A stretch of DNA of 64,000 nt from Gammaproteobacteria bacterium (GTDB lineage: Bacteria; Pseudomonadota; Gammaproteobacteria; JBCCGL01), in the NCBI GenBank assembly GCA_965277715.1, contig OZ255836.1, forward strand, positions 2,624,001 to 2,688,000, given 5' to 3'. Positions 5,542 to 62,830 of the stretch are shown in pieces. Each line of letters begins with the position of its first letter. The stretch's first letter is position 1. The notes below the pieces were generated by a model that worked only from the letters and a program-made list of their open reading frames with translations, did no database searches and was not told where the DNA came from. A program made the translations under genes and the position numbers.

Positions 5542-5560
5542 TCGTTACCACATATTCAGT

Positions 5561-9476: not shown

Positions 9477-9980
9477 TTATTCCCACTCATATTTCGATAT
9501 GTTTTGACCGTCAATTGTATACGCTGCCTCCGCATACTCTGAACGAACTGATTCGACTTGCATGATTCCTTCTACCCATACAGGTTCGTAGAGGTCGATG
9601 CTTACCCATGGTTTTTTTAGTTTGACGTAAATCACTTGATTGGCCGGGGGAGGTGGAACGTGTAGGCAGGCACCGACGTAGGGCACCAGTAAAAACTCGG
9701 AGACTTCATCGCCGTTAAATTCAAGCGGCAACATGAAACCGGGAATTTTAATTCGTTGATTGTTCAGCTTGCCAACAGTGGGTGCAGAAGGACTTTGCAG
9801 GCTTTCATCTCCGCTATCTTCCAGAAACATTGACGTACTGTTATTGGGTTCTGGTGACCAGTTTTTGGGCATCAGCTCTTCCCAGCCGATGACCTGAAAC
9901 TCTTGATCAGTTGCATGACTGTTTGTAAGCACTATAAGCAATAATGCTGTGTTAATAGTTCGAAATAAGATAGACATCAC
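9477..9980 (-). CDS. DUF3299 domain protein
   Basis: WEELMP, IPGFMLPL, EFLLVPYVGACLHVPPPPANQVIYV. Confidence 0.88.
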   Translation of the reverse strand: MMSILFRTINTALLLIVLTNSHATDQEFQVIGWEELMPKNWSPEPNNSTSMFLEDSGDESLQSPSAPTVGKLNNQRIKIPGFMLPLEFNGDEVSEFLLVPYVGACLHVPPPPANQVIYVKLKKPWVSIDLYEPVWVEGIMQVESVRSEYAEAAYTIDGQNISKYEWE

Positions 9981-9987
9981 GTTCCCC

Positions 9988-11942: not shown

Positions 11943-11947
11943 TATGG

Positions 11948-12478
11948 CTAGGGGAGTTCTACGCGGGTATTTTCCGCACCAAGCTCGACAATCGATTGAC
12001 CCTTGTCACTCACCACTTGAACGTCGATTTCTTCAATGCCGGGGAAGTGTTTGAACAAATTGATGTCAATACTGACAAGTGCGTGAGGTGTGTTGCATGT
12101 GTAGCTGTACTTTGTGTGAAACTCACTGTGTTCCTCATGTCCTCCATGTTCTTCGAGAAGCGAAGACTCGACCACTGAAGATTGAAGTGCGCACTCTGCT
12201 GGCGATGGTAACTGAAATAGCCTGTCGGGGGTTCCCAGTAATTTTTCTGCCGACCTAAGAGTGGCCCGGTCGGCATCAGCTTCGGCGGTGTGCTCAAAGC
12301 CGAGGATATTTACAGCAGGTGATTGCATGGCAATTTCCAGGTTTTTGTCGTCAATTGCAATTTGAAGCAGTACATGACCATGCTCGTGAGCGCTATGCTC
12401 GCGCTCGGTCGCGGCCAAGGCTACGGGTAGTAGCAACGCACAACTCAACGCCGTTGCGCGCATAAAAACAGTTTTCAT
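11948..12478 (-). CDS. zrgA: DUF2796/ZrgA family His-rich periplasmic zinc-binding protein
   Basis: Signal peptide, HSAHEHGH, SPAVNILGFEH, HSEF..Y.Y.C. Confidence 0.82.
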   Translation of the reverse strand: MKTVFMRATALSCALLLPVALAATEREHSAHEHGHVLLQIAIDDKNLEIAMQSPAVNILGFEHTAEADADRATLRSAEKLLGTPDRLFQLPSPAECALQSSVVESSLLEEHGGHEEHSEFHTKYSYTCNTPHALVSIDINLFKHFPGIEEIDVQVVSDKGQSIVELGAENTRVELP

Positions 12479-12531
12479 TGGGTAGAACTCCTGAAAAGTA
12501 AGCGATTAGTTTGTTAGTGGTGCGTTACTGT

Positions 12532-12894
12532 TCAGGAAACGGGAGGCCCCCGACTACGGTGAGTTATTGCTTTTTCACGGATGAAATAGGTATCGGGTGA
12601 TCGGAGAAACGTCTGTTCAGGGGCGTGTTCCTGGAAGGCGGTGGCCGTTTGTACAGCGTCACCCATAAAACCAAATTGGCACTTACCGCAGAGTTCATTG
12701 TCGTGTTCGCTGAGATGGTCGGTTTTTGACGAAGACAGGTCATTAATATGCAGCACAGCATCAGCTAAGTGGTTGACGGAATTTTCGAAGCTATGCGTCG
12801 TCGTGTGCGCAGGTTGCAGAAACGCACACAGCAACAACAGCAGTAAAAAAATATGCTGGAGTGAAATGCGATTGGTGTGGCGTGAGAACATCAT
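12532..12894 (-). CDS. Small His/Cys-containing protein of metal-uptake operon (DUF2946/DUF2607-like)
   Basis: N-terminal TM, His-rich segment, CxxC, C-terminal RSRGPP. Confidence 0.6.
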   Translation of the reverse strand: MMFSRHTNRISLQHIFLLLLLLCAFLQPAHTTTHSFENSVNHLADAVLHINDLSSSKTDHLSEHDNELCGKCQFGFMGDAVQTATAFQEHAPEQTFLRSPDTYFIREKAITHRSRGPPVS

Positions 12895-13373
12895 TGGATT
12901 GTAGCGTGTATTTTGTGGTCAGCAAGTTACCAATTTCGGATGCGATCAACTATCCACTGGCGACGGCGCTCATAGTCGTGTAGAGGCATCCTTTGATTTT
13001 GCAGGGAACTGCGCAGCCAGCAGCGCACGGTAGTCGTCGAGTTTGGTGCGATGCCGCTACCCAATGCGCCGCAAGGTGTGCGCACGGATTTTGTCGCTTT
13101 CGACCAGGTTTGTCGCGGCCAGAATCAACGGGGCTAACGTGTGATTTACCAATCTTCTGTTGTACAAACCAGTCTTTTTTAAACATATTCTTATCGTAGT
13201 AGCATCACTGCGTTATAACGGTAATGTGGTAACACAAATTTCTACTGAAAATATTTTTTAAAAAAAATTAAATATATTTTAATCTTTTTATTTCGATTTT
13301 ATGTGGTTTAATTTATAGCGTTCAATATGATACTTGATCTCTTTATTCCCGCTAATGCCAACTTAATCGAGCG

Positions 13374-14528
13374 CTATTTCTGCCTATAAAAAACCACCTT
13401 AAATTCCTCGCCACTTTTATCATTAAAAAACTCAGTCGCCTTATGGTGTTTTTCGATACGTTTAATGCCGCTGCCCATACCTGAATACGGCAAAAGCTTG
13501 ATCGCGTGAGACACCAATATAGGATTGCGGATAACCGAGTTGCCATAGCGAATATTTTCCACGGTGAGATGGTTAGGCAAGCTGCCGGGGCTGACCAACT
13601 CAAGCCTGTCTTGAAACAAGAGCAGGCGGATCACCGCACGCTTGCCATAGTCGCGGTGCAGCAGCGCGTTGACAATCGCCTCTTGCAACGCAGTCTCAGA
13701 GATCTCTAGCTCAGGCTGCGCATTAAAGCCGGGGGTTGATGGTTTTTGGCGCAGATGGCTTTTCAAAAATGCCATCGCACCCTGATAAACCAACAGTATA
13801 TTGCCTACCATATCGGCCCGCGACATATAGCGGTCATCGGCAATATCGTTACCGTAAAAGCTGACCGCGCGAATCAAGCAGTCCGGCGAATACGTCTGGG
13901 GTTGGCGGGCAAACAATAACAACCCGGCCAGATTAAAGTACTCACCTTTGGCCAGGTTCATATTATTCAGTAGCTGCTGCTCGCTAAGGTCTAGCTCCGC
14001 CAGGCTATCGCCAGTGGTTTGATCCAAAAATGCACTAAACATCACCTTATCCAGGCTGTCTGCAATAGCCGCCTGGCTAAGCCCCTCATCGATGTTGATA
14101 CGTGCATATTGTTGCAGCATCCGCTCCAATTCGGGCGGTGTCATCAGTTGTTTGCTGGTGGCGACCCGCAGCCAATACTTGCCGTCCCGGGTCATATGCG
14201 GTTTGTTATTGCTCGCCTGGATGCGCAGCACAATAATCGTCTTGCCTTGATAGTGAATAGCCTGGATATCCGGCTGCAAGGGCGCGATGACTTTATCGCG
14301 GGCAATACTGGCGATTCGCTGCTTGGTCTCTTCCAGCTTTTCGGGGGCAATGCCGATAACACCTTTGCCTTTATCTTCAATATCCAACAAAACCCAGCCA
14401 CCGCACGCATTGGCAAAGGCTGTCATCTCGGCGGCGAATTCCAACTCTTTTTTGGGCAGCGCTTGCTTAAATTCGTAAAACGAATCTTCCCCTGTGTGTA
14501 AAATATCGTCCAGACTGCGCTCAAGCAT
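13374..14528 (-). CDS. Schlafen/AlbA_2 domain fused to HATPase_c_4 (RecG C-terminal-like) domain
   Basis: GEDSFYEFK...AFANACGG; EAIVNALLHRDY...SPG.L...RNPIL...GSGIKRI; overlaps upstream gene by 8 nt. Confidence 0.85.
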   Translation of the reverse strand: MLERSLDDILHTGEDSFYEFKQALPKKELEFAAEMTAFANACGGWVLLDIEDKGKGVIGIAPEKLEETKQRIASIARDKVIAPLQPDIQAIHYQGKTIIVLRIQASNNKPHMTRDGKYWLRVATSKQLMTPPELERMLQQYARINIDEGLSQAAIADSLDKVMFSAFLDQTTGDSLAELDLSEQQLLNNMNLAKGEYFNLAGLLLFARQPQTYSPDCLIRAVSFYGNDIADDRYMSRADMVGNILLVYQGAMAFLKSHLRQKPSTPGFNAQPELEISETALQEAIVNALLHRDYGKRAVIRLLLFQDRLELVSPGSLPNHLTVENIRYGNSVIRNPILVSHAIKLLPYSGMGSGIKRIEKHHKATEFFNDKSGEEFKVVFYRQK

Positions 14529-17082
14529 GGTTAAAAAACCTCAATAAAGCCTCGATAGGCGGCCTTGCTTTACCGGCCAAATCAAACACCTTTTCCATCT
14601 TCGGTGCCAACGCCAGCACATCATTCAACATACCAAGGTAGCCTTTACGGGTAAATTCGGTTTTATCTTTGCACTGGCGCATCGCATCCAGCGATTCTAC
14701 TACCTCTTGTAGGGTCGCCTGCTGCTCCTGATTGGCTTTTCGCAGCGCTCGATTCAGCACACCTTCTAGCTCATCCAGCGTATTTTGGATGTTCACCTCA
14801 ACGTTGATATTCGCCTCGACCTGGGCATTGCTAGTGGTGGTATTGATATTGTGAACATGCAGGTGCATACCACCACCTGAAAGAAAATGCCCACCCTTCA
14901 TATAAACAGGCAGCGGCGGGTTTCTCCGCATGCCGATTTCCTCCGGCGTTGCGATTTTCGCCAACTCTGCGCGCACATTAAAATCCTGATTCAATTGCGG
15001 TACAAAATAATCCTGCTTGCCCGCATTATCACAAGCCAGCAATGCGTTAAAGTCCAGGCTTTGCTGGCGATCATCGCCCAGCATCAAGCGCTCGCTCCAC
15101 TCCAGCTCGGCGAAAAAGCTGTTGATATCACGAATCTCATCGCGCACGGCCAGCCAGTCTTCCTTCGGTTGTCGCGCGATCACCCAAATATCGATACAGC
15201 GTTCGCGCTTATTCGCCTGCACCATTACACGCGCACTGCTGTGCCGGTTTTTCAGGCGAATACCGGCATTCCAGAAGTCATTATCCTCGGCCTCGTACAC
15301 CTTTGAGTTCAACATACGCACAATCAGGCGGTGAATAATGCCCACTGGCAGGCTGTCTTTATAGGCCAGGTAATAATGTGCGCTGGCCTGCTCGCGGTAC
15401 TCCTTGTAGGAGGGCAGCTTGGGGTCGGCCTGCAAAGCGGCGGGAATCAAAATCGCCTTATTGTCTTGCGTATAGCACAGCTCAAACTTCTTCATCAGCG
15501 CCAGCAAATAGCGGTAGTGCTCGGCCTCGTAACGAAAATCGTCTTTGTCTACCGGGGCGAGAATCTGCGGAAAGTTATCGATGGATAGCTGCCCTTTAAG
15601 CTGAGCGGTAATATGCGAGGTAAGCAGTTTATACACCCCGTCTGTCAGCCATAGCGGGTTGAGAATTTGCAGGTGTTTTAGGTCTTTATCGTCAAAATAG
15701 CAAATCGCGCCGAGGTCGTTGAGGTATTGAATCAAGGCTTTTTGGTTCTCTGCATCGCTTTCCTCTGCCTCTTCGCAAATGAGCGTAAAGGTGCGGTAGC
15801 TAATCCAGTTTTTCCCGGCGCTGGTTTGCGCCTCCAACTGCTGCTTAACGGTAAACCAGCTATTAGGGAAAGGCCTGGAAACCAGTTCCAGGTTCTTTAT
15901 CTGTGTTTTAAGCGCAACGGTAAAGTCCTCAATACCCCCACCGCTGTGGCAGGAGAGCGCATAAAAACCACAGATCGCCGGGTAGCGATCTCGCAGTTGC
16001 TTCTCGGCCAGATCACCTCCGGGGTTTTGGTCGATTTTGTTGCGCACCACCATAATCGGTGAATCACCGCCCAGGCTGCGGATATGCTCCAGCCAGTACT
16101 CTGGCTCTTCCTCCTTGCGGCCGTCCAGCACCAGCACGTACAGGCTGCGCTCGGTCATAAAAAACTTATGCGCGGAGAGCTGAATCTCCTGGCCGCCAAA
16201 GTCCCAGATATTGGTGCGAATAGCGCCAACATACCAGGCCTGCTGGTGCACACCCAGCGTACTGGCCTGCTGTTCGCTATAGGTATTAAACACCACCCGG
16301 TTGCACAGGCTGGTTTTACCCGCGCCGCCATCACCCACCAGAATAAGCTTGGCCTCGTTTAGCGGGCGGCTGCCGGTTTGGCGGTTGGCGTGCAGCCAGG
16401 CGATGGCGGCTTTTGCGCCTTGCCGCCGGGTATCATTTGGGATTGTGGCCCTTAGCTTTAACTCTTCCAGGTTTTCCAGTTCCCCACTAAAGCGTTTTCG
16501 GCAAGGCTCCACCCAGTCGTGCAGGCCAATATCGCTAAGCGCCTTTAAGAAATTGTGGATAGCGGGCTGCCAATTTTCAGGCTCAGCGTTATGCCATAGC
16601 GTGTGTTCGTAGGCGTTATTGTTGGGGAGAAAAAGCAGCTCTTGCTCTAGCAAGGTATTTAGTGTCTGTTCACTTAGTCCAATGGAGCGAGCGGCGGTGA
16701 CGGCGGCGTAGGCGGCGTAGGCGGTGGCGGCGGCGTAGGCGGCGGCGTAGGTGGCGGCGTAGGTGGCGGTGGCGGCGTAGGCGGCGGCGTAGGCGGCGGC
16801 GTCGGCGGCAGCGTCGGCGGCGGCGTCGGCGTAGACGTCGGTGGCGGTTGTATTATTATAATCCTTCAACAAAAAATGCACACGATCCACAGCAAAAATT
16901 ACTGCAAGGGCATGGCCTGCTCGTTCCTCTTCCTCCCAAAAATCAAAATGCCCTTCCCTGCCCAACATCGGCAAGCTACGCAGCGCCATCCGCCACGCGA
17001 ACGCCACGCGCTGCTCTCTATTCAGGGTTTTTCTCAGTCGTTTTGCCAAGGCTTCTCTATCAATCACGCGTTGCCACCTCAC
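14521..17082 (-). CDS. Roc-COR (ROCO-family) GTPase without LRRs; Ala-rich repeat in N-terminal region
   Basis: G1 GDGGAGKTS, G2 STLGV, G3 WDFGGQE, G4 NKID; COR motifs YLNDLGAICYF, ILNPLWLTDGVY, LMKKFELCY. Confidence 0.9.
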   Translation of the reverse strand: MRWQRVIDREALAKRLRKTLNREQRVAFAWRMALRSLPMLGREGHFDFWEEEERAGHALAVIFAVDRVHFLLKDYNNTTATDVYADAAADAAADAAAYAAAYAATATYAATYAAAYAAATAYAAYAAVTAARSIGLSEQTLNTLLEQELLFLPNNNAYEHTLWHNAEPENWQPAIHNFLKALSDIGLHDWVEPCRKRFSGELENLEELKLRATIPNDTRRQGAKAAIAWLHANRQTGSRPLNEAKLILVGDGGAGKTSLCNRVVFNTYSEQQASTLGVHQQAWYVGAIRTNIWDFGGQEIQLSAHKFFMTERSLYVLVLDGRKEEEPEYWLEHIRSLGGDSPIMVVRNKIDQNPGGDLAEKQLRDRYPAICGFYALSCHSGGGIEDFTVALKTQIKNLELVSRPFPNSWFTVKQQLEAQTSAGKNWISYRTFTLICEEAEESDAENQKALIQYLNDLGAICYFDDKDLKHLQILNPLWLTDGVYKLLTSHITAQLKGQLSIDNFPQILAPVDKDDFRYEAEHYRYLLALMKKFELCYTQDNKAILIPAALQADPKLPSYKEYREQASAHYYLAYKDSLPVGIIHRLIVRMLNSKVYEAEDNDFWNAGIRLKNRHSSARVMVQANKRERCIDIWVIARQPKEDWLAVRDEIRDINSFFAELEWSERLMLGDDRQQSLDFNALLACDNAGKQDYFVPQLNQDFNVRAELAKIATPEEIGMRRNPPLPVYMKGGHFLSGGGMHLHVHNINTTTSNAQVEANINVEVNIQNTLDELEGVLNRALRKANQEQQATLQEVVESLDAMRQCKDKTEFTRKGYLGMLNDVLALAPKMEKVFDLAGKARPPIEALLRFFNHA
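16690..16848 (-). repeat. Degenerate (GCC)n codon repeat encoding TATDVYADAAADAAADAAAYAAAYAATATYAA...
   Basis: ~50 consecutive codons, nearly all GCC/ACC/GAC/TAC/GTC. Confidence 0.9.
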
Positions 17083-17109
17083 TAGCGGTTCACCCGCCGG
17101 GTTTTATCG

Positions 17110-17991
17110 TTATTCACTAATACCCGAAATTTCATCCATACAACTTTGCTCGATTACCGTGTGCAGCTTTTTTACACACGGCATTAACTGTAGCACTTGC
17201 TCACCGCTTATCTTATAGCTTTTATCATAGCGGGCGCCGATATAGGCGTAGTCGAGCAGCTCGAACAGTTCCTGCTGCGCATCGGTCTCGCGCGGCAGTA
17301 TATTGCTTAGCGCCGGACAATAGTCGATGGCTAAATCCCCTAGCGTATCGAGGTGGTGTTCTTGCGGGGATTCACCGGCAAATACCAATAAAACGGCTTT
17401 GTAGGCATGTTCACAGGCTTGATGAAGTTCAAATGCAGATTTTTTATAACTATCTCTGTTGAAAGCATTATCCGCATCAATAAGAAACTCCTTTGCGCTG
17501 GAAAATGTTTCGGTAAAGTCAGCTTGGGCGATGCGCTTTGACTCCGTTGGATCCAGTTCCCGCTTATCACCCAGTTCCACGTTACCACTGTTGTATAGCT
17601 GTATGCCTTGACCCAAAATTTCTGTAAAGAAATACTGCCCCTCATAAAGTTTGTAATTAACAAAATCAATATCGCGGGGAATAATGCGCAAGTAAGTGCT
17701 TAACCCCCCCTGCTCACACACTTGCTTGATATGCTGCCAAAGCCTGGTGTCCTGGGCGGTGTATTCATGCCGGGTAATGGCGAGGATGTCGTAGTCGCTT
17801 TTTTTGTGGATGGTCAGCCGACCGCGCCCTTGCTGGTGTGGGCCGTCTTTCCAGTCACCGCGCGCGTAAGAGCCAAACAGCAATACCATCTCGACGCTAT
17901 CGCATTCCTGGCAAATAGTCGCGGCGATGCGCTTTAGCTCGTTTTGTTTTTTTTCCGGTAAATGGCTAATGCTGTGATTCATGGCGGGCAA
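17110..17991 (-). CDS. Nucleotidyltransferase (MNT)-HEPN fusion protein
   Basis: LFGSYARGD...SDYDIL (Pol-beta NTase); FELHQACEHAYKA...HHL...YIGARY (HEPN). Confidence 0.9.
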   Translation of the reverse strand: MPAMNHSISHLPEKKQNELKRIAATICQECDSVEMVLLFGSYARGDWKDGPHQQGRGRLTIHKKSDYDILAITRHEYTAQDTRLWQHIKQVCEQGGLSTYLRIIPRDIDFVNYKLYEGQYFFTEILGQGIQLYNSGNVELGDKRELDPTESKRIAQADFTETFSSAKEFLIDADNAFNRDSYKKSAFELHQACEHAYKAVLLVFAGESPQEHHLDTLGDLAIDYCPALSNILPRETDAQQELFELLDYAYIGARYDKSYKISGEQVLQLMPCVKKLHTVIEQSCMDEISGISE

Positions 17992-18250: not shown

Positions 18251-18640
18251 CTCGATTGGACAGGGCGCTCCATGCGTGACGATAAACTTGGTCATATCCA
18301 TGCTGCGCTACCGCCGATACTCAAGCGTCTGGGTATTCTTGTGGATCAATGGGTCAGCGATAGCCAACAATTTGAGGTGGTTTACCGACGGCGATTCAAT
18401 CGCGCTGTGCCAACATCGAACACCGGATAGCTTCCCGCCCCCTCCTTCACTGAATTTCAAGCGCCGTATCGTGCGGGGACGGTTGACTTTGGCCTGAATT
18501 CAACAAAATGTTGGGGTAACATCTGGTTCCATCGAACTTTTCAGTTTTTAGCTGCGTTTTCGTGTTTCCAGCGTCATGCGAGTAACCGCCATCGCTCGTC
18601 AGTTGGACATATTTTGAAAAGGGGGTGTCCTTTTAGCTTT
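18251..18640 (+). mobile_element. Remnant (C-terminus and 3' flank) of a Y1/REP-associated transposase element
   Basis: Manual translation LDWTGRSMRDDKLGHIHAALPPILKRLGILVDQW...FE; flank ends in gggtgtccttttagcttt, similar to 3665-3682 and 29737-29753. Confidence 0.65.
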
Positions 18641-18819
18641 GACGCTGTTGGATTTGATCAATCAGAAAGGCCAACATCATCAGATGCATGAGCACCGTCG
18701 CTAGGAGCCTGTCGGATTCAGGACTGCTCTACTGCGAAAAACAACGCGTGCTGAACCACGCCAAAAAATCCTTTGTGATGGGTTGGGGGTTTCAGCGAAC
18801 CCAGGGGGAACGTTACAGA

Positions 18820-18934
18820 CGATAGAGAACAATCCAATCGTAGTAAGCACGCTCAATATGAATAGAATAACGGAGGCGTCTCATGAGATCACGCACTTCT
18901 GTAGCAGTTTTTTGTCCTTTGTTGGAGTTGACAT
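18820..18934 (-). pseudogene. 5' fragment of a second integron integrase with collapsed attI (18935-18968)
   Basis: MSTPTKDKKLL-(frameshift)-EVRDLMRRLRYSIHIERAYYDWI; DNA closely similar to 30257-30355. Confidence 0.75.
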
Positions 18935-18987
18935 ACTTGCCTGATTTCCTGGATACTAATTGTTATACTCCTATTTCGGTGCGCCAC

Positions 18988-19965
18988 TTATCCCCGTTCA
19001 AGTAAACTACTGAGTGGGCTTTTAACGCCCTGAGCACCTTGTTTGAGAACATGGGTATAAATTTCAGTTGTTTTTACGTCGCTGTGGCCAAGTTGTTGTT
19101 GTACAGTACGTATGTCAGCGCCGCTTTGTAGTAAATGCGTAGCAAAAGAATGTCGTAATGTGTGTGATGAAACTGGCTTAACAATGTCGGCCTTTTTCCT
19201 TGCGCTTGCAATTACCTTATTAATGGACGACTCATCAATGTGGTGACGTCTGACGTTGTTGGAAACTGGATCAACGCTCAATTTTTGCGATGGAAAAAGA
19301 TACTGCCAACCAAGCGTTTTATTCGCCATTTTATATTTTCGACTCAAGGCATCGGGCATCCAAACACCTGCATAAACAAAATTCGTCAGATCTTCCTCTA
19401 AAAGCAACCGTACTCTTTCAATTTGCCTGGTTAACGCCGACACCAGCTCCGGGGCTAAAGTGGTAAATCTGTGTTTGCGGCCCTTGCCATTCCAGATACG
19501 AAGCTGTAACAAATCCATATCAACATCGTGTACGCGTAAACGTACAGATTCCATGCGACGTAACCCAGACCCATATAGGATACCGATTATTAGTTTGTAT
19601 TTAGGGTCAACATGTTTAAGTAGACGGCTGACTTCACTTTGTATAAGCACCACGGGTAGTTTTGCCTGGCGACTTGCACGTTTAAATTCCACCATTTCTC
19701 CCAAGGGCTGTTCGAGAAAGCGGTTGTACAAAAATGCCAGCGCATTCAGCGCTACCTGCTGCGTGCCAATAGCAACCGTGCGGTTGATGGCCAAGTGCGA
19801 CAAAAAACGGACGACATCTTGCTCCCCCATTTCCTGAGGGTGTCGGTTGTGGTGGAAACGAATATAGGAACGAATCCAGGTGATATAAGCCGAGATTGTG
19901 CGCTTACTGTAATACCGCACCAACATGAACTCGTAAATAGACTGCAAAAAGGGCGACTTGTACAC
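18988..19965 (-). CDS. intI: Integron integrase
   Basis: [41 protein letters not shown] and IntI-specific insert WQYLFPS...RRHH; divergent attC array. Confidence 0.96.
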
Positions 19966-20147
19966 GTATAAATCCTTGTAAAGCAGAGAGTGTTATATGA
20001 TAATCCAAAACCAAAGGTTTAGGGAGTCGTTCCAGCATTTTTTTGTCTGTTATTTGCGATTTTCGTAGGGTTTTGTCATATTAATCAATATTTTAGTGTG
20101 TCTTTGTGAACTCAGTCTCGCGAAATTATCGCGATTCCACATAATAT

Positions 20148-20187
20148 TGTTATCGAGGATTCGTTCCTCGATAACAGGCTGTTAGGT
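20148..20187 (+). other. attI site of the intact integron
   Basis: GTTAGGT core at 20181-20187 is complementary to ACCTAAC of first attC; preceded by inverted repeat tgttatcgagga/tcctcgataaca. Confidence 0.75.
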
Positions 20188-20271
20188 TTTCATTCGGCAC
20201 AATGGATCCCTAGTACATAAAACCAGTGCCAAATACTCCAGGAGATAGAGATACAAAGTAATTTTAACGAT

Positions 20272-21051
20272 ATGAGTTCGAACGAAGCAATAGAATTTGA
20301 CTCGAAAAACAACCCGGTATTTTCTGATATTAACGAAGCGATACGAAAGCATATAGAAAAAACATTTGACGACAAAGAGGCTATCCGGTGGATGTCTGAA
20401 TCATTTTTGAAGGAGGGGTATATTAAGGTAAGCAATATTGTGCCTGATTCAGTTAAGAAGATTTTTGATGAAGAAGTGATGGCCTTATTATCTCAACATG
20501 CCAAGCGGAGGGATATTCACATAGAGGTTACCGACAATAGCCCAAGATTCATGAGCAATGTGCGGCAACAAGATATTGCAAAATATGGACAAGTAGTTCC
20601 TGCGGTATATCACTCTCCAGCCTTGCTAGATTTTATTAGCACATTCTCCAGAGAGAATATTATCCCTAACCCTTGGGAATATGAAAAATTTATTATTAAT
20701 CGGCAAGAACGTGTTGGGGATACGCATGGATGGCATTGGGGAGACTACCCTTACAGCATGATATGGATTGTTAAAGTCCCCGATATATCATATGGAGGCT
20801 TGCTTGAATGTGTTCCTCATACATATTGGGATAAAAAAAATCCAAAGATACAGGAGCATCTATTAAGGAATAACATTACTACTAAAGCTCATATAAGTGG
20901 TGATATATATATGTTGAAATCTGATACGACTTTGCATCGGGTTACCCCATTAATAAGGGATGCCACTCGAATAATAGTAAATATGGCTTGGGAGAGAGAA
21001 ATTGACAAGGATCGTGAAGTAACTCACGAAACTTTTGCCTTTAGAGATTAA
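20272..21051 (+). CDS. BesD/HalD-family Fe(II)/2-oxoglutarate amino-acid halogenase (cassette 1, gene 1)
   Basis: T.NSPRFM, GDTHGWHWGDY (H-X-G instead of H-X-D/E), GGLLECVPHT.W.K, LHRVTPL, RIIVNM. Confidence 0.82.
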   Translation: MSSNEAIEFDSKNNPVFSDINEAIRKHIEKTFDDKEAIRWMSESFLKEGYIKVSNIVPDSVKKIFDEEVMALLSQHAKRRDIHIEVTDNSPRFMSNVRQQDIAKYGQVVPAVYHSPALLDFISTFSRENIIPNPWEYEKFIINRQERVGDTHGWHWGDYPYSMIWIVKVPDISYGGLLECVPHTYWDKKNPKIQEHLLRNNITTKAHISGDIYMLKSDTTLHRVTPLIRDATRIIVNMAWEREIDKDREVTHETFAFRD

Positions 21052-21068
21052 TTGGTTATAGGTGTAGT

Positions 21069-22031
21069 ATGGATAAGTTACGCCCCCCCGATCTTTTTGA
21101 CTATGCGCTTTTGATTCTTCTTGGAGCTATGTTTGGAAGTAGTTTTTTACTAATGAAGGTTGCCGTTAGTACAGTCCCAACATTTCATGTGGTCTTCTTT
21201 AGACTACTGTTCGCATTTTTTGTGTTGTATGTTTTTGTGAGAATCAAAAAGCACAAATTCCCTTCAATACAGAATCGAGAGTTTTGGAAGGTATGTGTCG
21301 TTTTAGGCTTTACCGCTAATATTATTCCTTTTTCTTTAATTACTTGGGCAGAAAAAGAAATTGATAGTGGTTTGGCATCGATATATATGGCAACAATACC
21401 GGTTTTTTCTTTGCTACTGGCTCATACATTGACTAGTGATGAAAAATTAACCATACAGAAAGTGGTAGGGGTGTGCGTGGCTTTTGCTGGAGTAGTAATT
21501 CTTTTATGGGGAGAAGCAAGGGAGATTTCACAAAATCTTCTTGCACAAATGGCGTGTCTGTTGTCAGCGATATTTTATGCATATTCAAGAATTCTGGCTA
21601 AGACTATAGGAAATGAAAATCCAATAATTATTAGTTCAGGGGTTCTTTTATGCGCCATTATTTTTATGGTGCCTCTGATATTTTTGTCGGGAAATCCCAC
21701 TACTATAAATCCATCTAGTGAATCTATTTTTGCAATAATATTGCTCGGCATATTCCCAACTGCATTAGCGTTCGTAATTTTGTACAGATTAATACATGAT
21801 GTTGGGGCTGTGTTTATGACAAGCGTTAATTACTTGGTGCCAGTTTTCGCCATCATTTGGGGGTATTTCATACTGTCAGAAAGTATAAATGAAAGGGCTA
21901 TTCTAGCGCTTGTCTTTATTTTTTCGGGAGTATTGTTCATGTCCAAAACCATTTTTACTATTGGAAAGTTTTCACAATGGAACCTAACAAGGCGCTCAAC
22001 AGGGACGCGCAAAAAGCCGCGCGCCCGTTAG
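21069..22031 (+). CDS. DMT/EamA family transporter (cassette 1, gene 2)
   Basis: ~10 TM segments in two EamA repeats; GSSF, PFSLITWAE, VNYLVPVFAIIWG; ORF ends inside attC. Confidence 0.9.
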   Translation: MDKLRPPDLFDYALLILLGAMFGSSFLLMKVAVSTVPTFHVVFFRLLFAFFVLYVFVRIKKHKFPSIQNREFWKVCVVLGFTANIIPFSLITWAEKEIDSGLASIYMATIPVFSLLLAHTLTSDEKLTIQKVVGVCVAFAGVVILLWGEAREISQNLLAQMACLLSAIFYAYSRILAKTIGNENPIIISSGVLLCAIIFMVPLIFLSGNPTTINPSSESIFAIILLGIFPTALAFVILYRLIHDVGAVFMTSVNYLVPVFAIIWGYFILSESINERAILALVFIFSGVLFMSKTIFTIGKFSQWNLTRRSTGTRKKPRAR

Positions 22032-22044
22032 CTTTGCGTTATGT
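21982..22044 (+). repeat. attC site 1
   Basis: ACCTAAC...imperfect palindrome...GTTATGT, 63 bp. Confidence 0.9.
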
Positions 22045-22070
22045 GAATCCGTAAAACTAAGGAATATAAA

Positions 22071-22505
22071 ATGTCATACATTCAAGACTCTCTATCAAAA
22101 GGCGAAGAAATCTATCAGGTATTTGAACATCATTGGATTGTGAAGTTCTTTCTCCTTATTCATATTGCCATGTGTCTAACTATCATATGGATACCAGTTG
22201 CTCTTTTTTACTGGTTAGGCTGGAAATTCACAGAGCAAGGTGTAACGAATAAAAGGATAATCTATAAACACGGTATTATTTCGAGAAAAACTGATGAGAT
22301 GCGCCTCGCGGCCATTGAGTCAGTAATGATCAAGCAGGGTATTATTGGCCGCATTCTCGGCTTTGGTAAAGTCGTCATCACTGGTCGTGGTGCTGGAGAC
22401 GTGGTTATAAAATGGATGGCTGATCCAATGAGAGTAAAGCGTGAAATTGAAAGTGCAGAACATGAAACTCCTGCTCATGTATCTCAACAAGCCGAGCTGG
22501 CATAA
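22071..22505 (+). CDS. Bacterial PH domain (bPH_2) membrane protein (cassette 2)
   Basis: VTNKRIIYKHGIISR...IESV...QGIIGRILGFGKVVI.G.G. Confidence 0.85.
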   Translation: MSYIQDSLSKGEEIYQVFEHHWIVKFFLLIHIAMCLTIIWIPVALFYWLGWKFTEQGVTNKRIIYKHGIISRKTDEMRLAAIESVMIKQGIIGRILGFGKVVITGRGAGDVVIKWMADPMRVKREIESAEHETPAHVSQQAELA

Positions 22506-22508
22506 ATC

Positions 22509-22584
22509 ACATAACAAATTTAGGCAATCGGACAAATTACTGCGCCTTCGGCTCCGTAATTTTCCGTTGCTAAAGGCGTTATGT
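22509..22584 (+). repeat. attC site 2
   Basis: ACATAAC...GTTATGT with internal hairpin. Confidence 0.9.
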
Positions 22585-22622
22585 GCTTTCAGGGCACCCG
22601 AACTATCAATGGAATACATAGA

Positions 22623-23789
22623 ATGCCAATATTTACCGGACTAAATTTGAAACCGCAACTTATTGCTATTTTACTTTGGTCTATATCTTTGCAAGTTCTG
22701 GCGTCTGAAAAAACGATTACCTGTAATGATGCTATAAATAGCGCAGCAGAACTAAACGCCTATGATTTGTGGAGTGGTGCTGGCGACTGTTCTAAGTCAA
22801 ACTTAAAACGTGAAACAAATTTTCTTTTAATTGCTGGTCAAATTCGCGCAATGTCTGATATGAGTGTGTTAGAGCCAGCTTCAGATGAAGAGGGTGTGAA
22901 GGTCGGTGATTTGTATGGGGTCCTTTACTACAAATCTGGGGGTTCAGGTTTCGATGAAATTTATAGAGATGCTATCGAATTTGGTCAACTTTTTCGGGAT
23001 CTAGAAAGCTGGACCGCAAAACTTCACAAAAAATACAATCCTGGATGGGAATATAAGGCCAATATTGACCCCACCTATTATGACCAAATGACTATATGTC
23101 AAAAAAAGCTTCGTATTTCTAAATTAAAGTGGTATTCGAACCTAGTCCGAAACGACAAGTATTATGAACTGAGTACACAGCTTTCTAAGTTACAGGCAGA
23201 TAATTCAGGAGCGTTTCAGGTTGGGACTGAAACATACAAGCAGTATCAGAGCATAAGCTCCAAAATAAATTCTGTTAGTTCAAAAATATCAAAACCGAAA
23301 GTTAACCCTAAAGAGTGCGACTTCATTCAACCGTTCAGACCAGATCCAAATGCTAGCTTTAAGCAAATATACAAGGGTTATAATGGCCCCGATAATAGTA
23401 GAGCTAGTGTATTCAAATCGGACGCGGAAATTAGAGGTTCTTGGCTTGGTAGAGCGATTAAAAAATCGAATTTGGATAATTTGTTGGCTAAAATAGATTT
23501 CGATAAGAAAATTGTCGTTTCTCTAAGTTTTGGAAATCGAAAAACAGCAACAGGAACTATCCATATATCGGATGTAAAATTCAATACTGTATACAAAAGC
23601 CTCTCCGTTGCTGGTCTTGTCGGAGTTGTTGGACAATCCTGCACCAAGAGCCAACTAGATTCTTATCCTTTTGCATTGGCAATCGCTGATATACCTCCTG
23701 TCGAAATCTATTATCCGAGTATCTCTATACAAAATTTCGCGGACGGATGCAAAGAAGTGGTTTCGAGTAAGGGGGTCTTAGATGATTAG
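22623..23789 (+). CDS. Hypothetical exported protein (cassette 3)
   Basis: 389-codon ORF with signal-peptide-like N-terminus between attC2 and attC3. Confidence 0.8.
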   Translation: MPIFTGLNLKPQLIAILLWSISLQVLASEKTITCNDAINSAAELNAYDLWSGAGDCSKSNLKRETNFLLIAGQIRAMSDMSVLEPASDEEGVKVGDLYGVLYYKSGGSGFDEIYRDAIEFGQLFRDLESWTAKLHKKYNPGWEYKANIDPTYYDQMTICQKKLRISKLKWYSNLVRNDKYYELSTQLSKLQADNSGAFQVGTETYKQYQSISSKINSVSSKISKPKVNPKECDFIQPFRPDPNASFKQIYKGYNGPDNSRASVFKSDAEIRGSWLGRAIKKSNLDNLLAKIDFDKKIVVSLSFGNRKTATGTIHISDVKFNTVYKSLSVAGLVGVVGQSCTKSQLDSYPFALAIADIPPVEIYYPSISIQNFADGCKEVVSSKGVLDD

Positions 23790-23816
23790 CTTAAAGGTTG
23801 TGTCTGGAAGTCTGGC

Positions 23817-23876
23817 ACATAACAAAAACAGTCAAGGCGACGCCAAAAAGCGGCGCGCTTGCTGTAAGCGTTAGCA
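23817..23876 (+). repeat. attC site 3
   Basis: ACATAAC...GTTAGCA, 60 bp. Confidence 0.88.
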
Positions 23877-24103
23877 CGATGAAAGAAATGAAGAAAATTC
23901 TCACCTTAGTATTAATGCTTGTTCCTCTTGTTTTATCTGCCGCTGAGTATCCGTCACTACTCAAAGTTCCGGTAGGCGAAAGATTTTCCCACCCTCAAGG
24001 GATGCAAAACAAAGATAAAGGTGGGCCTACAACTCAATTCCGAGTGCCAAATCATGGTAACATTTCATCTATTTTTCCTGAGTATTCAATTGCCTATTTA
24101 AAT

Positions 24104-25644
24104 CATGGGTGTACCACTAGAATCCTACCAGGAAGCTAATAACGCAATGAATAACACCTGAAAAGAGCCGCCATAAGCTACAAATAGTATTTTTTATAAT
24201 ATTTGTACTGTTTTTTTATAAACCGATAACACGCTTTATAATTCATAAAATAAATAAAATTATCCAAAAAAACACTTGCATTCACCAGCAGAATTTTTTT
24301 TTAAAATACCCATTTAATATCTGATTAAATGGGCAAATTGAATATGAACGAAATGATGACCGTTGAAGAATATATCACCGAACACTGTAAAATAAGTATG
24401 GAAAAAGCAATTGCTGCTGAACGCTTCCCTTTATGGAAAAGATCATGCGATGCCATTGATGACGTAGCTTTTTCTCGCCATGGGTTACTTCGCTGTATAA
24501 GTCTTGTACATAGTGGTCGTCACTATCTACAGGTTACGGATGAAATATACGACGAGACAATTTGTCATTCAAGCTATTTTAACGCATTAAAGTCGACAAG
24601 ACGGATGAAGATGATGGAAGCCATGGAAAAGCAAAGCTATCAACTGCAAAGTGAGAAATTATCTTCTTTGGACATTGATTATTTAAAACAATTTCCTGAA
24701 CTTGAAGAATATCGAGTAGAAGCAGCTGATGGTCATTTTATACAGCATGCTTGTCACACAGAGAAAAATCGTCAGGGCAACGTCTTCGCAGCAGGCTTTA
24801 TTCATGCCTTGAACCTCAGAAATGGACTTCTAAGACCACTTTGTGTCGTGACTAACGGTACTGAACGACACCAGGAAATACCCGCGTTACGTTCTTATAT
24901 TGAACAACGTTGTGGCGAAAAAGAGACTTGGCAAAAGCACCTCTATATATACGATAAGGCGGTGACTGATTATGCATGGTGGGAAAAGCAAAAACAGCAT
25001 CAGAATTTTATGATTTCAGTACTCAAAGAAAATGCGGTTGCAACTTTTGTCAACTCTATACCCTATGACCAGGGTAGTGAAATTAATACAGGGGTTGAAG
25101 GCTATAGTGTATATAAAAATAAAAAGGTCCAATTTCATATTGTTAAATACCGCGACCCAGAAACAGGTCAATTACATCAATTTATTTCAACGCTACCAGA
25201 GTCAATTAACCCAGGCACTATTGCTATGCTCTATTACAAGCGTTGGACGATAGAAAAATCATTCAACAATAGTAAAAGTGATTTCACCGAAAGAAAAGCC
25301 TGGTCTTCAAACCTGAATGCGCTGAACAGTCAAATGCGTTTTACTGCCATGGCCTATAATATCATGCGTATTTTTGAAGAAACATCAAAAACAAAGAACC
25401 TGGAATGTATTCATCCATCTGATAAAAAATACACTAAAATGCTTGATAAGAGACAACAAATTGCCCAGAAAAAAGGCGGCTTTGTTAATCCATTGTTTTT
25501 TTACGCTAGAATTACCCGTATATGCTCATTCACCATCCGCTCTCTGCAAAATGCAATAATGACAAGAAAGTCCCTTAGAACTATTATGCATAGCTTAGTG
25601 AGGCATTTAAAACCTCGACAGCCAGGAATTTTGAAACACTGATG
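24104..25644 (+). mobile_element. IS4-family insertion sequence
   Basis: CAT...ATG ends with imperfect IRs; 8-bp target duplication atttaaat (24096-24103, 25645-25652). Confidence 0.88.
24329..25642 (+). CDS. IS4-family DDE transposase
   Basis: AADGH, YDKA, YYKRWTIEKSFNNSK (YREK motif). Confidence 0.9.
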   Translation: MGKLNMNEMMTVEEYITEHCKISMEKAIAAERFPLWKRSCDAIDDVAFSRHGLLRCISLVHSGRHYLQVTDEIYDETICHSSYFNALKSTRRMKMMEAMEKQSYQLQSEKLSSLDIDYLKQFPELEEYRVEAADGHFIQHACHTEKNRQGNVFAAGFIHALNLRNGLLRPLCVVTNGTERHQEIPALRSYIEQRCGEKETWQKHLYIYDKAVTDYAWWEKQKQHQNFMISVLKENAVATFVNSIPYDQGSEINTGVEGYSVYKNKKVQFHIVKYRDPETGQLHQFISTLPESINPGTIAMLYYKRWTIEKSFNNSKSDFTERKAWSSNLNALNSQMRFTAMAYNIMRIFEETSKTKNLECIHPSDKKYTKMLDKRQQIAQKKGGFVNPLFFYARITRICSFTIRSLQNAIMTRKSLRTIMHSLVRHLKPRQPGILKH

Positions 25645-25958
25645 ATTTAAATGCAACAGGTCACGTGGTAATAGTAACAGCAGAAAAGGCAGTTAAAAAT
25701 TGGGAAGAATGTGAGAGCCTGGAAGAGAAGGCATCGCTGCTAATCAGTCAAGCATTTCCTAACTATAAGAGTTCACCCGTTTCCAATAGTCAGCTTGGCG
25801 CTCCCGGCGAGTTTTCGTTAGAATCAGCAGATACTTACTACGTGCTTCGGTGTAAAGGTTCGTATGGCCCGTTTGCATACCTTCATTTTCAAATTCGCAG
25901 CAAGAGCCAAAATATAGAGTTAAAAAATGCATGGGATGAATACTTCAAAAAGCAATAG

Positions 25959-26039
25959 TGCTAACAAGGCACTCAAAATCGCCCACAAAAAGCGTGGGCT
26001 GGGACGCGCTAACGCGCGCCCTTTAGTGCGACGTTATGC
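25959..26039 (+). repeat. attC site 4
   Basis: TGCTAAC (complement of the GTTAGCA starting cassette 4)...GTTATGC. Confidence 0.9.
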
Positions 26040-26054
26040 ATCAGGAAGAGTGAA

Positions 26055-26393
26055 GTGAAATATCTAGGAATAGCCGTTTTATCAGCATTTCTGTCAGCAT
26101 GTGCAATTTGGGCTCCAGGAAAAGACCCTCGTGGTGAAAAGGTCGTTTCTAATGCAAACGAAGTGCTTTCAGCCTTGAATAAATATGCAATTGAAAATTC
26201 GGTGTATCCAAACTCATTAAATGATCTTGTTCCGAATTACATCAAGGCAATACCTAGGGAACCGTCCATGCTCTACAAAGCAGATGAAGGTAGTCTTTTC
26301 TTCACTTATTCACCTTCTTGGCCACAGCAAGGTAACGTTTCATGTGGTGCAAAAATCGGTGATAAAACTGTAGGTTGTATTGGGTACATATAA
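26055..26393 (+). CDS. Putative lipoprotein (cassette 5)
   Basis: Lipobox LSAC; YP..L..LVP.Y segment resembling pseudopilin-like proteins. Confidence 0.75.
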   Translation: MKYLGIAVLSAFLSACAIWAPGKDPRGEKVVSNANEVLSALNKYAIENSVYPNSLNDLVPNYIKAIPREPSMLYKADEGSLFFTYSPSWPQQGNVSCGAKIGDKTVGCIGYI

Positions 26394-26396
26394 AAT

Positions 26397-26495
26397 GCAT
26401 AACAAGTTGCTCAAGTGCTCTCCGGTCGCAAAAGACGCGGCCTCCGCGGGACAACCTACACTACGTTTCGGTTGCCCCTTAGCAAAGCGTTAAAT
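26397..26495 (+). repeat. attC site 5
   Basis: GCATAAC...GTTAAAT, 99 bp. Confidence 0.85.
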
Positions 26496-26574: not shown

Positions 26575-27892
26575 GGTTCTTCCCCGATTATTGTGAAGCC
26601 ACTGGTTCCCTATCCAGCTTTCCGCAGTAAAACAAAATACTCCGCCGGTAGCTTTCAAACGAACGAAACCCTCTTGCATTCGATTTGACCATCTGAATGT
26701 TTGAATTCAAACCCTCTGACACGGCATTACTTATTGTGTGCTTAAACCATGTCAATATGTTCGGCATGTGCGTTTTTATCATCTTGGCCACTTTCTTTAT
26801 GCTGTCCAATCGGCACCGAATTGCCCACGCATACCATGCGCTAAAGAAACGCTTTGCCCAACCCGCTGTCTTATACGTCCAAAAATCACGAAACAGTTCT
26901 TTTATCGCCCAGGCTCGGGCTGTCAATAACTGATCATGCTTGAGTGACTCAAAGTGCTCGGCTGCTTTGTTAGACAAATTTTCTTCATTTTTTAACCAGT
27001 GATAACGACTCTTTTTCAATCGAGTATCACCCTGTGACAAAAGGTCTCTATGTTCGTCACGACGGACCTGATCCACCGCCTTATTCAGGTGTTGGCTAAT
27101 ATGAAAACGGTCGTGAACAATCGCACTGTCTGACAGTTTTACCTCAATGGCATTAATGAACGCAGGCCACCTATCAATAGCGACAGCTTTCACCTGTTCT
27201 CGCTGGTTATCCGTCAGCGCAACCTCCAACGCCTCCTCACAAGCTGCCTGGGTGCGATCTTTCACTCCATCCAATACTCGCCCTCCATCGATATCATTGA
27301 TGAGCGTCACATAGTCATGCCCTTTACGGTGGGACTTCTCATCAATACCCAGGTACTCAATTGTCACCAATTCCCGACGCGAAAGTCCCCGTTCGACAGC
27401 GCGGGCTTTGATGGCTTCCACCGCGTTCCAGCTAAGCCCCAGTAACTTACGCGCCTCTTCGACGCTACGTGAGGCTTGCAACACCCTGATAGAAAATAAT
27501 TCAAACAACAACGTAAAACGACTGCGCTTGCTTGCCCAGGGTAACACCATACTTTTAACACCATGCTCCAGACAATTTACTCGGGGAATGCGACTGTGTA
27601 GGCGCGTTTCAAACTGCATAGTATCCAGGTGTCTCCAGGATCGCTCTTGTGAACGGTGATCATAGAGCGGACTCACTTCGCCACAGTGCGAGCAAGGGCC
27701 GTGGTTGCCGCTAAACGCCAACGAAATGGATACTTTTAACCCTGAAGGGTCTAAATCAACTGACACCACTGACCAGTCATCTGTCAGGCCCAGGAGCTAG
27801 CTGTAGTGTTCTTCAAGGCTCGATAGCACCGGAGTCTCTCAATAGCAAAGGGGGATGAAATACTATAACCTCACACAAACCGGGGAAGAACC
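26575..27892 (-). mobile_element. ISL3-family insertion sequence
   Basis: TIRs ggttcttccccg/cggggaagaacc; 8-bp target duplication tcatcact. Confidence 0.93.
26588..27829 (-). pseudogene. ISL3 transposase with nonsense codon at codon 11
   Basis: CxxC...WRHLD...PRV.C..HG, GIDE, DRFH, SEGLNS.I motifs; TAG at 27797-27799 where the 7.3-kb copy has CAG. Confidence 0.8.
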
Positions 27893-28220: not shown

Positions 28221-29253
28221 AAAGGGGTCAGGCAAGTTATTTACTATTTAACTGATTTTCAATTTGATGCATCACCTCTTTAAGTTCCCCCTTGTCTAGC
28301 GCCTTCTTGACGTGAGCTATTGCACTCGACACACCACCAGGGTGACTTAACCCAAAATGTTGAGTAATCGCCTTTAACGACATATCACCAAACCGCTGGC
28401 AGTAGTACATGGCCAATTTGCGGGGAATGTTCGCGCTACCTCCCTTACCTTGACTATCCGAAATACTGCCTTCACTCACTCGGCAACAATTTGCCACCGT
28501 TTTTACTATCACACTGCTGGCTACCTTTTCCCGCAATTGGGGCCGCACATCAACGCCACTCTGGCTTTCTTTGTACTCGACCAACTGTGAGCGGAACACC
28601 TTGTCACCTAACACCGTCGATAGGTTATTTTTGCCGTAAAAGCGCTGTATATCCTCATCAATCCCTTGGTCTACATAGTCTGTGTAACATTGACAGTCGT
28701 TTTTCACCGGTAAACAGGCATAAACACGATCACGACACAACCAAGCAGGGCTCAATGCTTTTCCTATGTAAGCCGGGTAACTAGACCAGGGATAGTTCTT
28801 TAGCGATTGAATCAGAGGTCGTTTAGTCTCAATGGGGTTTCTATGTATATAGCGAGACAGGGGTAATAGATACGCATCTTCATCGACATTGATGGCTTTA
28901 AATCGCCCTCTAAACTGAGGGCCATCCGTTTTTTTAAGGCAGTTATAACGCTGTGTATAGACACCATCGATATGTTGCATAATGCGACTGAGGTTAGCAT
29001 CAGGCGTTTCCAGCAGTAGGTGGTAGTGGTTGCCCATTAGGCAATAAGCGTGAATCACGGCGTGAAAACGCTCTGCGGCTTCGGTCAATGTGGCGAGAAA
29101 CGCTTGGTAGTAAGCTTCGCTATGAAAAACTGTCTTACGCTCCCGACCACGGTTCATTATATGGTAGAAGGCGTTTTCATATTCTATGCGGTGAGGTCTT
29201 GGCATGGGGTGATATTGACATAATCTATGATAAATAACTAGCCTGACCCCTTT
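28221..29253 (-). mobile_element. Y1/RAYT-like transposase element, copy 1, with 23-bp terminal inverted repeats
   Basis: aaaggggtcaggcaagttattta ... taaataactagcctgaccccttt; extra tandem end copies at 28165-28213. Confidence 0.8.
28237..29205 (-). CDS. Y1 (IS200/RAYT-like) HUH transposase with C-terminal DnaA-like HTH
   Basis: MPRPHR..YHIMNRG, YCLMGNHYHLL (HUH), YIHRNP, YPWSSY; C-terminal R.LAMY...SL..I...FG. Confidence 0.9.
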   Translation of the reverse strand: MPRPHRIEYENAFYHIMNRGRERKTVFHSEAYYQAFLATLTEAAERFHAVIHAYCLMGNHYHLLLETPDANLSRIMQHIDGVYTQRYNCLKKTDGPQFRGRFKAINVDEDAYLLPLSRYIHRNPIETKRPLIQSLKNYPWSSYPAYIGKALSPAWLCRDRVYACLPVKNDCQCYTDYVDQGIDEDIQRFYGKNNLSTVLGDKVFRSQLVEYKESQSGVDVRPQLREKVASSVIVKTVANCCRVSEGSISDSQGKGGSANIPRKLAMYYCQRFGDMSLKAITQHFGLSHPGGVSSAIAHVKKALDKGELKEVMHQIENQLNSK

Positions 29254-62819: not shown

Positions 62820-62830
62820 GGAGCGCAATC

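Follow-up and report, generated by a model that had tools for sequence, protein, structure and literature searches.

The stretch of DNA analysed here (the window) spans 64,000 nucleotides (nt) of contig OZ255836.1 from a gammaproteobacterial genome and carries a chromosomal integron, made up of an integrase gene (intI), an attI site and a row of gene cassettes with their attC sites. Cassette 1, the first of the row, holds two genes: hal, which encodes a predicted iron- and 2-oxoglutarate (2OG)-dependent halogenase of the BesD type, and eamA, which encodes a transporter of the EamA family. We describe this pair, its relatives and the case for reading it as a mobile module that makes and exports a halogenated amino acid. 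Along the window, the features of the integron are as follows (aa, amino acids; GC, guanine plus cytosine; ORF, open reading frame).

18988-19965, minus strand: intI, an apparently intact integron integrase gene of 325 aa (432.7 bits with TIGR02249, cut-off 265, matched over profile positions 1-315 of 315)
19976-20004, plus strand: candidate outward promoter, a possible Pc (TTGTAA, 17 nt, GATAAT), from a consensus scan with 9/12 matches
20148-20176: inverted repeat with perfect 12-bp arms around a 5-nt loop, abutting the attI core upstream, from a repeat scan; terminator-like on the minus strand
20181-20187, plus strand: attI core site GTTAGGT, 216 nt from the intI start, from exact search
20182-22038, plus strand: cassette 1, 1857 bp, GC 0.38, with the halogenase gene, the EamA gene and attC1
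20240-20245, plus strand: Shine-Dalgarno sequence AGGAGA
20251-20253, plus strand: position of the relatives' start codon, ATA here and ATG in the relatives
20272-21051, plus strand: hal, 259 aa (PF23169)
21069-22031, plus strand: eamA, 320 aa (PF00892)
21982-22044, plus strand: attC1, 63 nt, from ACCTAAC (21982-21988) to GTTATGT (22038-22044)
22039-22578, plus strand: cassette 2, with a bacterial PH-domain (bPH_2) membrane protein (ORF 22071-22505)
22509-22584, plus strand: attC2
22579-23870, plus strand: cassette 3, with a 402-aa protein without a Pfam match (ORF 22581-23789)
23817-23876, plus strand: attC3
23871-26033, plus strand: cassette 4, with a DDE transposase gene inserted at 24329-25642
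25959-26039, plus strand: attC4
26034-26489, plus strand: cassette 5
26397-26495, plus strand: attC5
26588-27769, minus strand: ISL3 transposase gene, which cuts the array after cassette 5

In a profile search, the intI product contains the Pfam domains Phage_integrase and Phage_int_SAM_4, and at least five cassettes lie downstream of attI. The five attC sites were read off the sequence by eye and then fixed by exact search. A consensus attC scan (RYYYAAC...GTTRRRY plus fold energy) was also tried and discarded; it recovered none of the real sites, whose actual cores are GTTATGT, GTTAGCA and similar. For a cassette to be circularisable, its first core word must be complementary to the inner core of its own attC, and 5/5 cassettes open with a 7-mer that reads as the perfect reverse complement of that core; in cassette 1 the pair is GTTAGGT (20181) and ACCTAAC (21982). 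As background, a partner of this kind lies 300-2300 nt downstream of 12 of the 114 GTTNNNN words between 19901 and 27000, the five real ones among them. The fold of attC2 stands out clearly from shuffled sequences (z -4.0 and -6.84). Recombination at attI would take place between G20181 and T20182. The outer arm of the inverted repeat at 20148-20176 forms, together with the attI core, a TAACAG/CTGTTA palindrome resembling a simple site, and the repeat could be an IntI-binding or insulating element. Apart from the genes listed, cassettes 2-5 contain small ORFs without a family match, and the array has been damaged by insertion sequences, namely the DDE element inside cassette 4 and ISL3 past cassette 5.

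Cassette 1 occupies the attI-proximal slot of the array. The spacer between hal and eamA is only 17 nt long and forms no structure, which leaves no room for an attC between the two genes, and the last ~16 codons of eamA run into attC1. The GC content of the cassette is 0.38, compared with 0.47 and 0.53 in its flanks. The strongest evidence that this unit is a single mobile cassette comes, at the level of sequence, from a 3582-nt contig of a hydrothermal-vent metagenome (run X7, record 23), which matches the window only at 20181-22044, with 24 differences in 1864 nt, no gaps and 98.7% identity. The flanks of the vent contig (1526 nt before the match and 192 nt after it) are unlike the window, and run X7 has no cover of window positions 19505-20107 or 22118-24127. 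The match runs from the G of the attI core to the final base of the attC outer core, and such a boundary-exact match in a foreign context indicates that the 1.86-kb unit probably moves as a single cassette. An earlier note on this DNA had described an attI-proximal cassette of about 1.86 kb with GTTAGGT...ACCTAAC ends, carrying two genes with no attC between them, the second of them for an EamA transporter, and had suggested a minimal mobile unit that might be sought elsewhere. The exact searches, the spacer and the core at 20181-20187 bear out this anatomy, and the same two-gene cassette has now been found in the vent metagenome between different flanks.

Contigs of four runs were aligned to window positions 18500-24500. 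Those of runs X4 and X5 are identical to the window throughout cassettes 1-3, with some differences in and around intI, and may come from the source organism itself. The stretch from 19950 to 22650 is found in 21 listed runs from 10 studies, and sponge metagenomes cover nearly all of it. When halogenase and EamA proteins are clustered at 90% identity, both clusters have members on contigs of equal size (3582, 2434 and 2338 nt), which fits hal and eamA travelling together; contigs of 4910 and 21634 nt also occur in the 90% clusters. A further contig of 1414 nt (run X9, record 25) aligns to window positions 20358-21678 with 33 differences and contains the halogenase gene from 20358 on only. The sequence before that point is unlike the window and ends ...TTAGGTTGGAGCATTAAACCTAAC; both core words of cassette 1 occur there, 12 nt apart, and this may be a 5'-truncated or rearranged copy of the cassette.

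The hal product matches the Pfam family HalD (PF23169) with 294.4 bits against a cut-off of 26 (E 6e-88, profile positions 3-222 of 228). Its reading frame is fully open, and it aligns end to end with residues 4-246 of HalB. Ranked by E value, the solved relatives are HalB (7u6i; 5.8e-73), HalD (5.9e-63), BesD (3.5e-58) and HalA (6.6e-58), and the lysine hydroxylase of the family scores below these halogenases (1.4e-50). The motif HGWHWGDY occupies residues 152-159; the predicted iron ligands are H155 and H222, and G157 stands at the carboxylate position (H155-W-G157...H222). His149 and His217, the iron ligands of HalD (PMC10041140), align with H155 and H222, and Gly157 thus sits where the carboxylate ligand is missing. 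The H-x-G...H pattern is invariant in 22/22 sequences, and across 160 fetched loci H-x-G is found in 153 and H-x-D in five, with two unreadable (one frameshifted, one partial). An AlphaFold model built with 22 sequences has a mean predicted local distance difference test (pLDDT) score of 91.3, falling to 63 in the last ten residues, where no helix is predicted. The model superposes on HalB with a template-modelling (TM) score of 0.90 (root-mean-square deviation 1.0 Å), on HalD with 0.89 and on BesD with 0.82.

Conservation extends beyond the iron site. Residues R79, H152, H155, W156, D158, H222, R233 and N237 are identical in 94/94 family rows; G157 is present in 93 of them, the exception being a row with H-x-D, and I164 in 92, the same row and a HalB-like one having valine instead. 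All 28 rows of hal's own clade share H155, G157, H222, R79, H152, D158, I164, R233 and N237, and agree at these positions with the halogenase classes. We take R79, H152, D158 and R233 to be involved in substrate and 2OG binding. Residues I164 and N237 align with I151 and N224 of HalA, positions altered in deposited HalA variants. Residue E138 aligns with the lysine-binding glutamate of BesD (called E119), which makes a salt bridge to lysine's side chain (PMC10245910). Glu138 was weighed as a means of telling basic from aliphatic substrates and then dropped, since this position is Glu or Asp in 94/94 rows, including hal's own clade (E in 16 rows, D in 12). By homology, there is a strong case that hal is a halogenase, and the candidate substrate would be a basic amino acid such as lysine or ornithine, or an aliphatic one.

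Within the family, hal is not a BesD orthologue and falls in a separate clade defined by its C-terminal lid. The BesD equivalog model NF042920 gives it 225 bits, against a cut-off of 450. Four types of lid can be distinguished, the BesD/HalA-like (...DDRWWE...), the HalB-like (...HETMEAMF.), the HalD-like (...HESIDVIWG...) and one that ends in HETF(A/V/S)FRD; hal has a short lid of the last type (...HETFAFRD), at which the protein stops. In a quick maximum-likelihood tree (IQ-TREE, with support from the Shimodaira-Hasegawa-like approximate likelihood ratio test, SH-aLRT, only), 94 of 271 rows were kept after removal of duplicates and sequences more than 80% identical, with L002, L122, L160 and short fragments left out. 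All 28 rows of the HETF(A/V/S)FRD type fall on one branch (SH-aLRT 97), and HalA, HalB, HalD and BesD all lie outside it. Within the branch, 12 rows form a Pseudomonas-rich group with support of 100; hal is among the other 16, which make up three supported groups without a resolved order among them. The earlier assignment to a BesD-type family with H-x-G therefore stands at the level of the family (PF23169, G157 intact), in a clade apart from BesD itself. At the lid, Glu138 might be paired with R258 where it would otherwise meet the ammonium group of a substrate. Five loci (L053, L120, L123, L126 and L131), for example in Trichormus azollae, carry H-x-D (HGWHWDD) together with the lid ...HETIIDMYDI. 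These members are presumably hydroxylases, and their single representative in the tree sits on a long branch beside hal's clade with weak support (67).

It is extremely improbable that hal is itself a hydroxylase or another oxygenase despite its H-x-G, or that its substrate is something other than a free amino acid. Such a reading could draw on the unstudied type of the lid and on the fact that glycine at the iron-ligand position is necessary and not sufficient for halogenation. Against it, the core residues are common to all four of the named Protein Data Bank halogenases, the residues aligned with binders of the amino-acid carboxylate and amine are conserved, and the hydroxylases of the family carry H-x-D (5/160 loci) with another type of lid.

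The eamA product contains two EamA repeats (PF00892, E 1.5e-39), as the earlier note had it, and scores 114 bits with the YedA model and 110 bits with TIGR00950, both below their cut-offs. Relatives of the halogenase are encoded on 403 stretches from a scan of 185,579 species genomes and on 252 stretches from a metagenome scan. The nearest genomic relatives are found in a Hyphomicrobiales metagenome-assembled genome (L001, 61% identity), Candidatus Spongiihabitans thiooxidans (L002, 71%) and Phormidesmis (L003, 56%), and the nearest metagenomic ones are L081 (61%) and L082, from a soil metagenome (63%). A homologous EamA gene lies directly downstream, at a distance of 7-187 nt, in 4/4 informative loci (L001, L002, L003 and L082); L081, the fifth locus at least 56% identical, ends 323 nt after the halogenase gene. 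The EamA proteins of the relatives are 35-68% identical to that of the window.

The other neighbours of the four pairs are unrelated to one another: an SDR gene and a 2OG oxygenase with an MFS gene in L001, LysR and GCS2 genes in L002, ParA, integrase and Tn3-like genes in L003, and TetR and TonB genes in L082. No integron integrase was found in the 1.8-6 kb of flank at these four loci, the genomes of L001-L003 have only distant or broken integrase-like matches elsewhere, and at the ends of the four pairs a relaxed scan for hairpins turned up nothing resembling attC. In three of the four loci, the GC content of the pair is below that of both flanks. Relatives of the halogenase also occur in 43 plasmid records, all of them less than 60% identical and none of the near clade. 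The varied contexts, conserved adjacency and lack of integron signs at the relatives point to an old operon that moves horizontally and that appears to have been captured here as a cassette; together with the vent contig, the conservation of the pair in four relatives speaks for the minimal mobile unit of the earlier note. In L002, the halogenase gene (5977-6775) is frameshifted into frames of 94 and 166 aa next to an intact EamA partner, and ~200 nt of upstream sequence are duplicated (5394-5590 and 5660-5850).

Export is the most likely direction of transport, judging from the protein family and its gene neighbourhood. Carriers of the EamA/DMT type comprise both importers and exporters, and the scores of eamA with the two more specific models, below cut-off as they are, would leave room for an importer of the substrate or for a pump conferring resistance to halogenated amino acids that neighbours produce. 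Either role is very unlikely here, given the close operonic coupling to the halogenase that all four informative relatives keep and the EamA genes that also close the bes and Pseudomonas clusters described below, an arrangement that fits export of a product.

A different fate of the product has to be weighed in light of the known pathways. In cryptic halogenation, the chlorinated amino acid would be an intermediate, converted by enzymes of the BesB/BesC, PazB or ligase type encoded elsewhere, and EamA would export some other end product. Chlorine is indeed a leaving group in both characterised pathways, bes (review PMC8407142) and paz (PMC10760155), and the sister clade from Pseudomonas is clustered with an oxidase, an ATP-grasp ligase and other tailoring genes. 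In the window, no heme-oxygenase-like oxidase, ATP-grasp ligase or BesB-type pyridoxal-phosphate (PLP) enzyme was found among the 64 ORFs scanned, which agrees with the earlier statement that BesC, BesB and ligase tailoring genes are absent from it. The scan covered 61 of the 80 ORFs of at least 120 aa plus three shorter cassette ORFs; of the 19 omitted, two are open-ended and the rest are overlapping alternative frames. The only PLP enzymes in the scan, Aminotran_3 (37409-38815) and Aminotran_5 (49078-50325), both lie at a distance of over 15 kb and are not part of the array. In addition, the EamA gene alone is common to the four related loci, and the cassette moves as a two-gene unit, whereas a pathway dependent on its host would work in few recipients. 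Taken together, we regard cryptic halogenation as unlikely at this locus.

These lines of evidence make it probable that cassette 1 is a self-contained mobile two-gene operon that makes and exports a halogenated amino acid. In the mechanism we propose, hal would act as a radical Fe(II)/2OG halogenase in which Gly157 replaces the carboxylate ligand. By analogy with BesD, HalA, HalB and HalD, chloride, or bromide in sea water, would bind the iron, and a free L-amino acid would receive the halogen on one of its side-chain carbons. The EamA/DMT carrier would then export the halogenated amino acid, which would also protect the producer. Transcription would start from an integron promoter upstream of attI, and IntI would cut the unit out and put it back in by way of attI and the 63-nt attC. 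The ecological role may be that of an antimetabolite or of chemical defence.

Several observations weigh against this reading. Firstly, the start codon used by the relatives has been lost (ATG to ATA), and the next ATG, at 20272, lacks a Shine-Dalgarno sequence; without a ribosome-binding site there, translation may be poor. Secondly, the candidate promoter does not stand out from chance, with 12 such sites in the region against 9.5 expected. Thirdly, the fold of attC1 taken alone is not significant against shuffled sequences (z -1.15 on the top strand, -1.44 on the bottom strand), and the attC1 call consequently rests on sequence logic and on the boundaries of the vent contig. The search for tailoring genes covered the window, and such enzymes may possibly be encoded elsewhere in the genome. 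Finally, no characterised or solved member was found in hal's clade, and the eight solved sequences with matches at or below E 1e-40 all fall outside it, both by lid type and by score. The residues known for lid selectivity are M246, M249 and F250 in HalB and I250, I253 and W254 in HalD (PMC10041140); hal has F255, R258 and D259 at these positions, unlike every solved lid. With a clade that lacks a solved member and a lid that deviates in this way, the substrate and the chlorination site are not predictable from sequence. The family also contains PrHalE, which takes leucine, isoleucine and norleucine (review PMC8407142).

The loss of the start codon bears most directly on whether the cassette is a silent or decaying passenger, intact in sequence, with little or no expression and no current function in its host. 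Four related proteins (P0001 and P0122-P0124) have 266 aa and start at an ATG 5 nt past AGGAGA; P0122 and P0123 begin MQSNFND..., and the same frame reads IQSNFND in the window. In the vent contig, an A-to-G difference at 20253 gives ATG. The frameshifted halogenase of L002, the closest genomic relative, and an array riddled with insertion sequences point in the same direction as the ATA codon. On the other side, the frame of 259 aa is open, aligns with HalB over residues 4-246 and keeps all catalytic residues, the cassette sits in the promoter-proximal slot, and P0125, a second member of the cluster, also has the 259-aa form. An AGGTG of its own precedes the eamA start by 5 nt. On balance, a silent passenger seems rather unlikely, and make-and-export remains the reading we favour.

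A broader proposal may be put forward tentatively, and its parts taken jointly are doubtful. Marine integrons may trade a complete make-and-secrete module whose end product is a halogenated free amino acid. Released as an antimetabolite or as a reactive amino acid, this product would serve in competition or in defending a host, in communities of sponges and vents. As part of the same proposal, hal may represent a fourth selectivity class of the BesD family, in which R258 takes the place of the substrate ammonium opposite E138 and allows a new substrate or regiochemistry.

The novelty is twofold: the enzyme, of a known family, falls in a new clade, and its arrangement as a minimal mobile unit is new as well. 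The suggestion that it had not been described as an integron cassette holds insofar as literature searches for integron cassettes with a halogenase or with EamA returned no report of such a unit. What most environmental integron cassettes do is, to our knowledge, not known. A biosynthetic operon that appears to have been taken up in one piece and to have passed between sponge-associated communities and those of vents would widen the cargo of integrons beyond resistance and toxin-antitoxin genes. In the available text of the sources on bes (PMC8407142) and paz (PMC10760155), native roles of BesD-family halogenases are reported only with cryptic chlorine; a conserved halogenase-exporter pair without tailoring genes suggests a chlorinated or brominated amino acid as the final secreted product. 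Lids control site and chain-length selectivity in the BesD family (PMC10041140), and the enzyme of this clade, compact, mobile in nature and equipped with a new lid, is of interest for biocatalysis.

The host can be called sponge-associated since sponge metagenomes contain the stretch. Its description as a sulfur oxidizer fits the sat-aprBA genes, on which alone the label rests. Upstream of intI, a run of defence-like genes extends from 7571 to 17991. These features, in order, are as follows.

7571-9154: T5orf172/DUF4041
13374-14528: Schlafen AlbA_2
14521-17082: Roc-COR GTPase of 853 aa
17110-17991: HEPN and nucleotidyltransferase
60635-64000: sat (ATP sulfurylase), aprB and aprA in a row

Downstream of the array, 28221-28520 and 30741-31040 are 99%-identical copies that lie 2520 nt apart. 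The corresponding ORFs (28237-29205 and 30757-31725, minus strand) fuse an IS200-like Y1 transposase domain to a C-terminal DnaA helix-turn-helix, and short repeats of the GGGGTCA type flank them.

Among known systems, HalB, a lysine 5-chlorinase from Streptomyces wuyuanensis (7U6I/7U6J; Kissman et al. 2023, PMC10041140), resembles hal in its fold, with 43% identity over 238 columns, in its iron ligands with glycine at the carboxylate position and in the aligned binders of the substrate carboxylate and amine. It differs in its lid (M246/M249/F250, compared with F255/R258/D259 in hal) and belongs to another clade, and the number of HalB-lid loci with an adjacent EamA gene of this kind is 0. The bes locus of Streptomyces cattleya has in common with cassette 1 a halogenase of the same family and, as the earlier note had stated, an EamA gene (L168 11658-12671), which lies ~4 kb from besD and whose product is only 23% identical to the EamA of the window. 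Unlike the short lid of hal, that of BesD is long and unstructured and contains Trp239. Between besD and the EamA gene lie oxidase, ATP-grasp and hydroxylase-like genes, none of which is present in cassette 1; the ORF filter applied to the bes locus scored no besB-type PLP gene.

The pazRABCD cluster of Pseudomonas azotoformans (PMC10760155) likewise combines a BesD-family lysine halogenase with amino-acid transporters. It differs from cassette 1 in needing the PLP enzyme PazB, which converts chlorolysine to a cyclopropane amino acid, and in having a regulator and two transporters, and the available part of its description does not present it as a cassette (PMC10760155). A second Pseudomonas cluster (L006-L010, L014, L092 and L084) comprises Hal, a glyoxalase, DUF3291, a heme-oxygenase-like oxidase, an ATP-grasp ligase, a Na/H exchanger and EamA. 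Its halogenase belongs to the sister clade and has a short lid ending F-x-F-R-D, and here, too, the EamA gene comes last; four or five tailoring genes separate halogenase and transporter, however, and position 138 is Asp. This cluster is conserved and resembles bes in parts, and no literature report of it was found; the mangotoxin literature was considered as a match and rejected, as no halogenase is involved there.

With ordinary integron cassettes, cassette 1 shares the anatomy of attI, attC and core sites, the orientation of its genes and a GC content below that of its host. Most integron cassettes hold one small gene. Cassette 1, by contrast, spans 1857 bp and contains what appears to be a complete operon of an enzyme and its exporter, one that also exists outside integrons.

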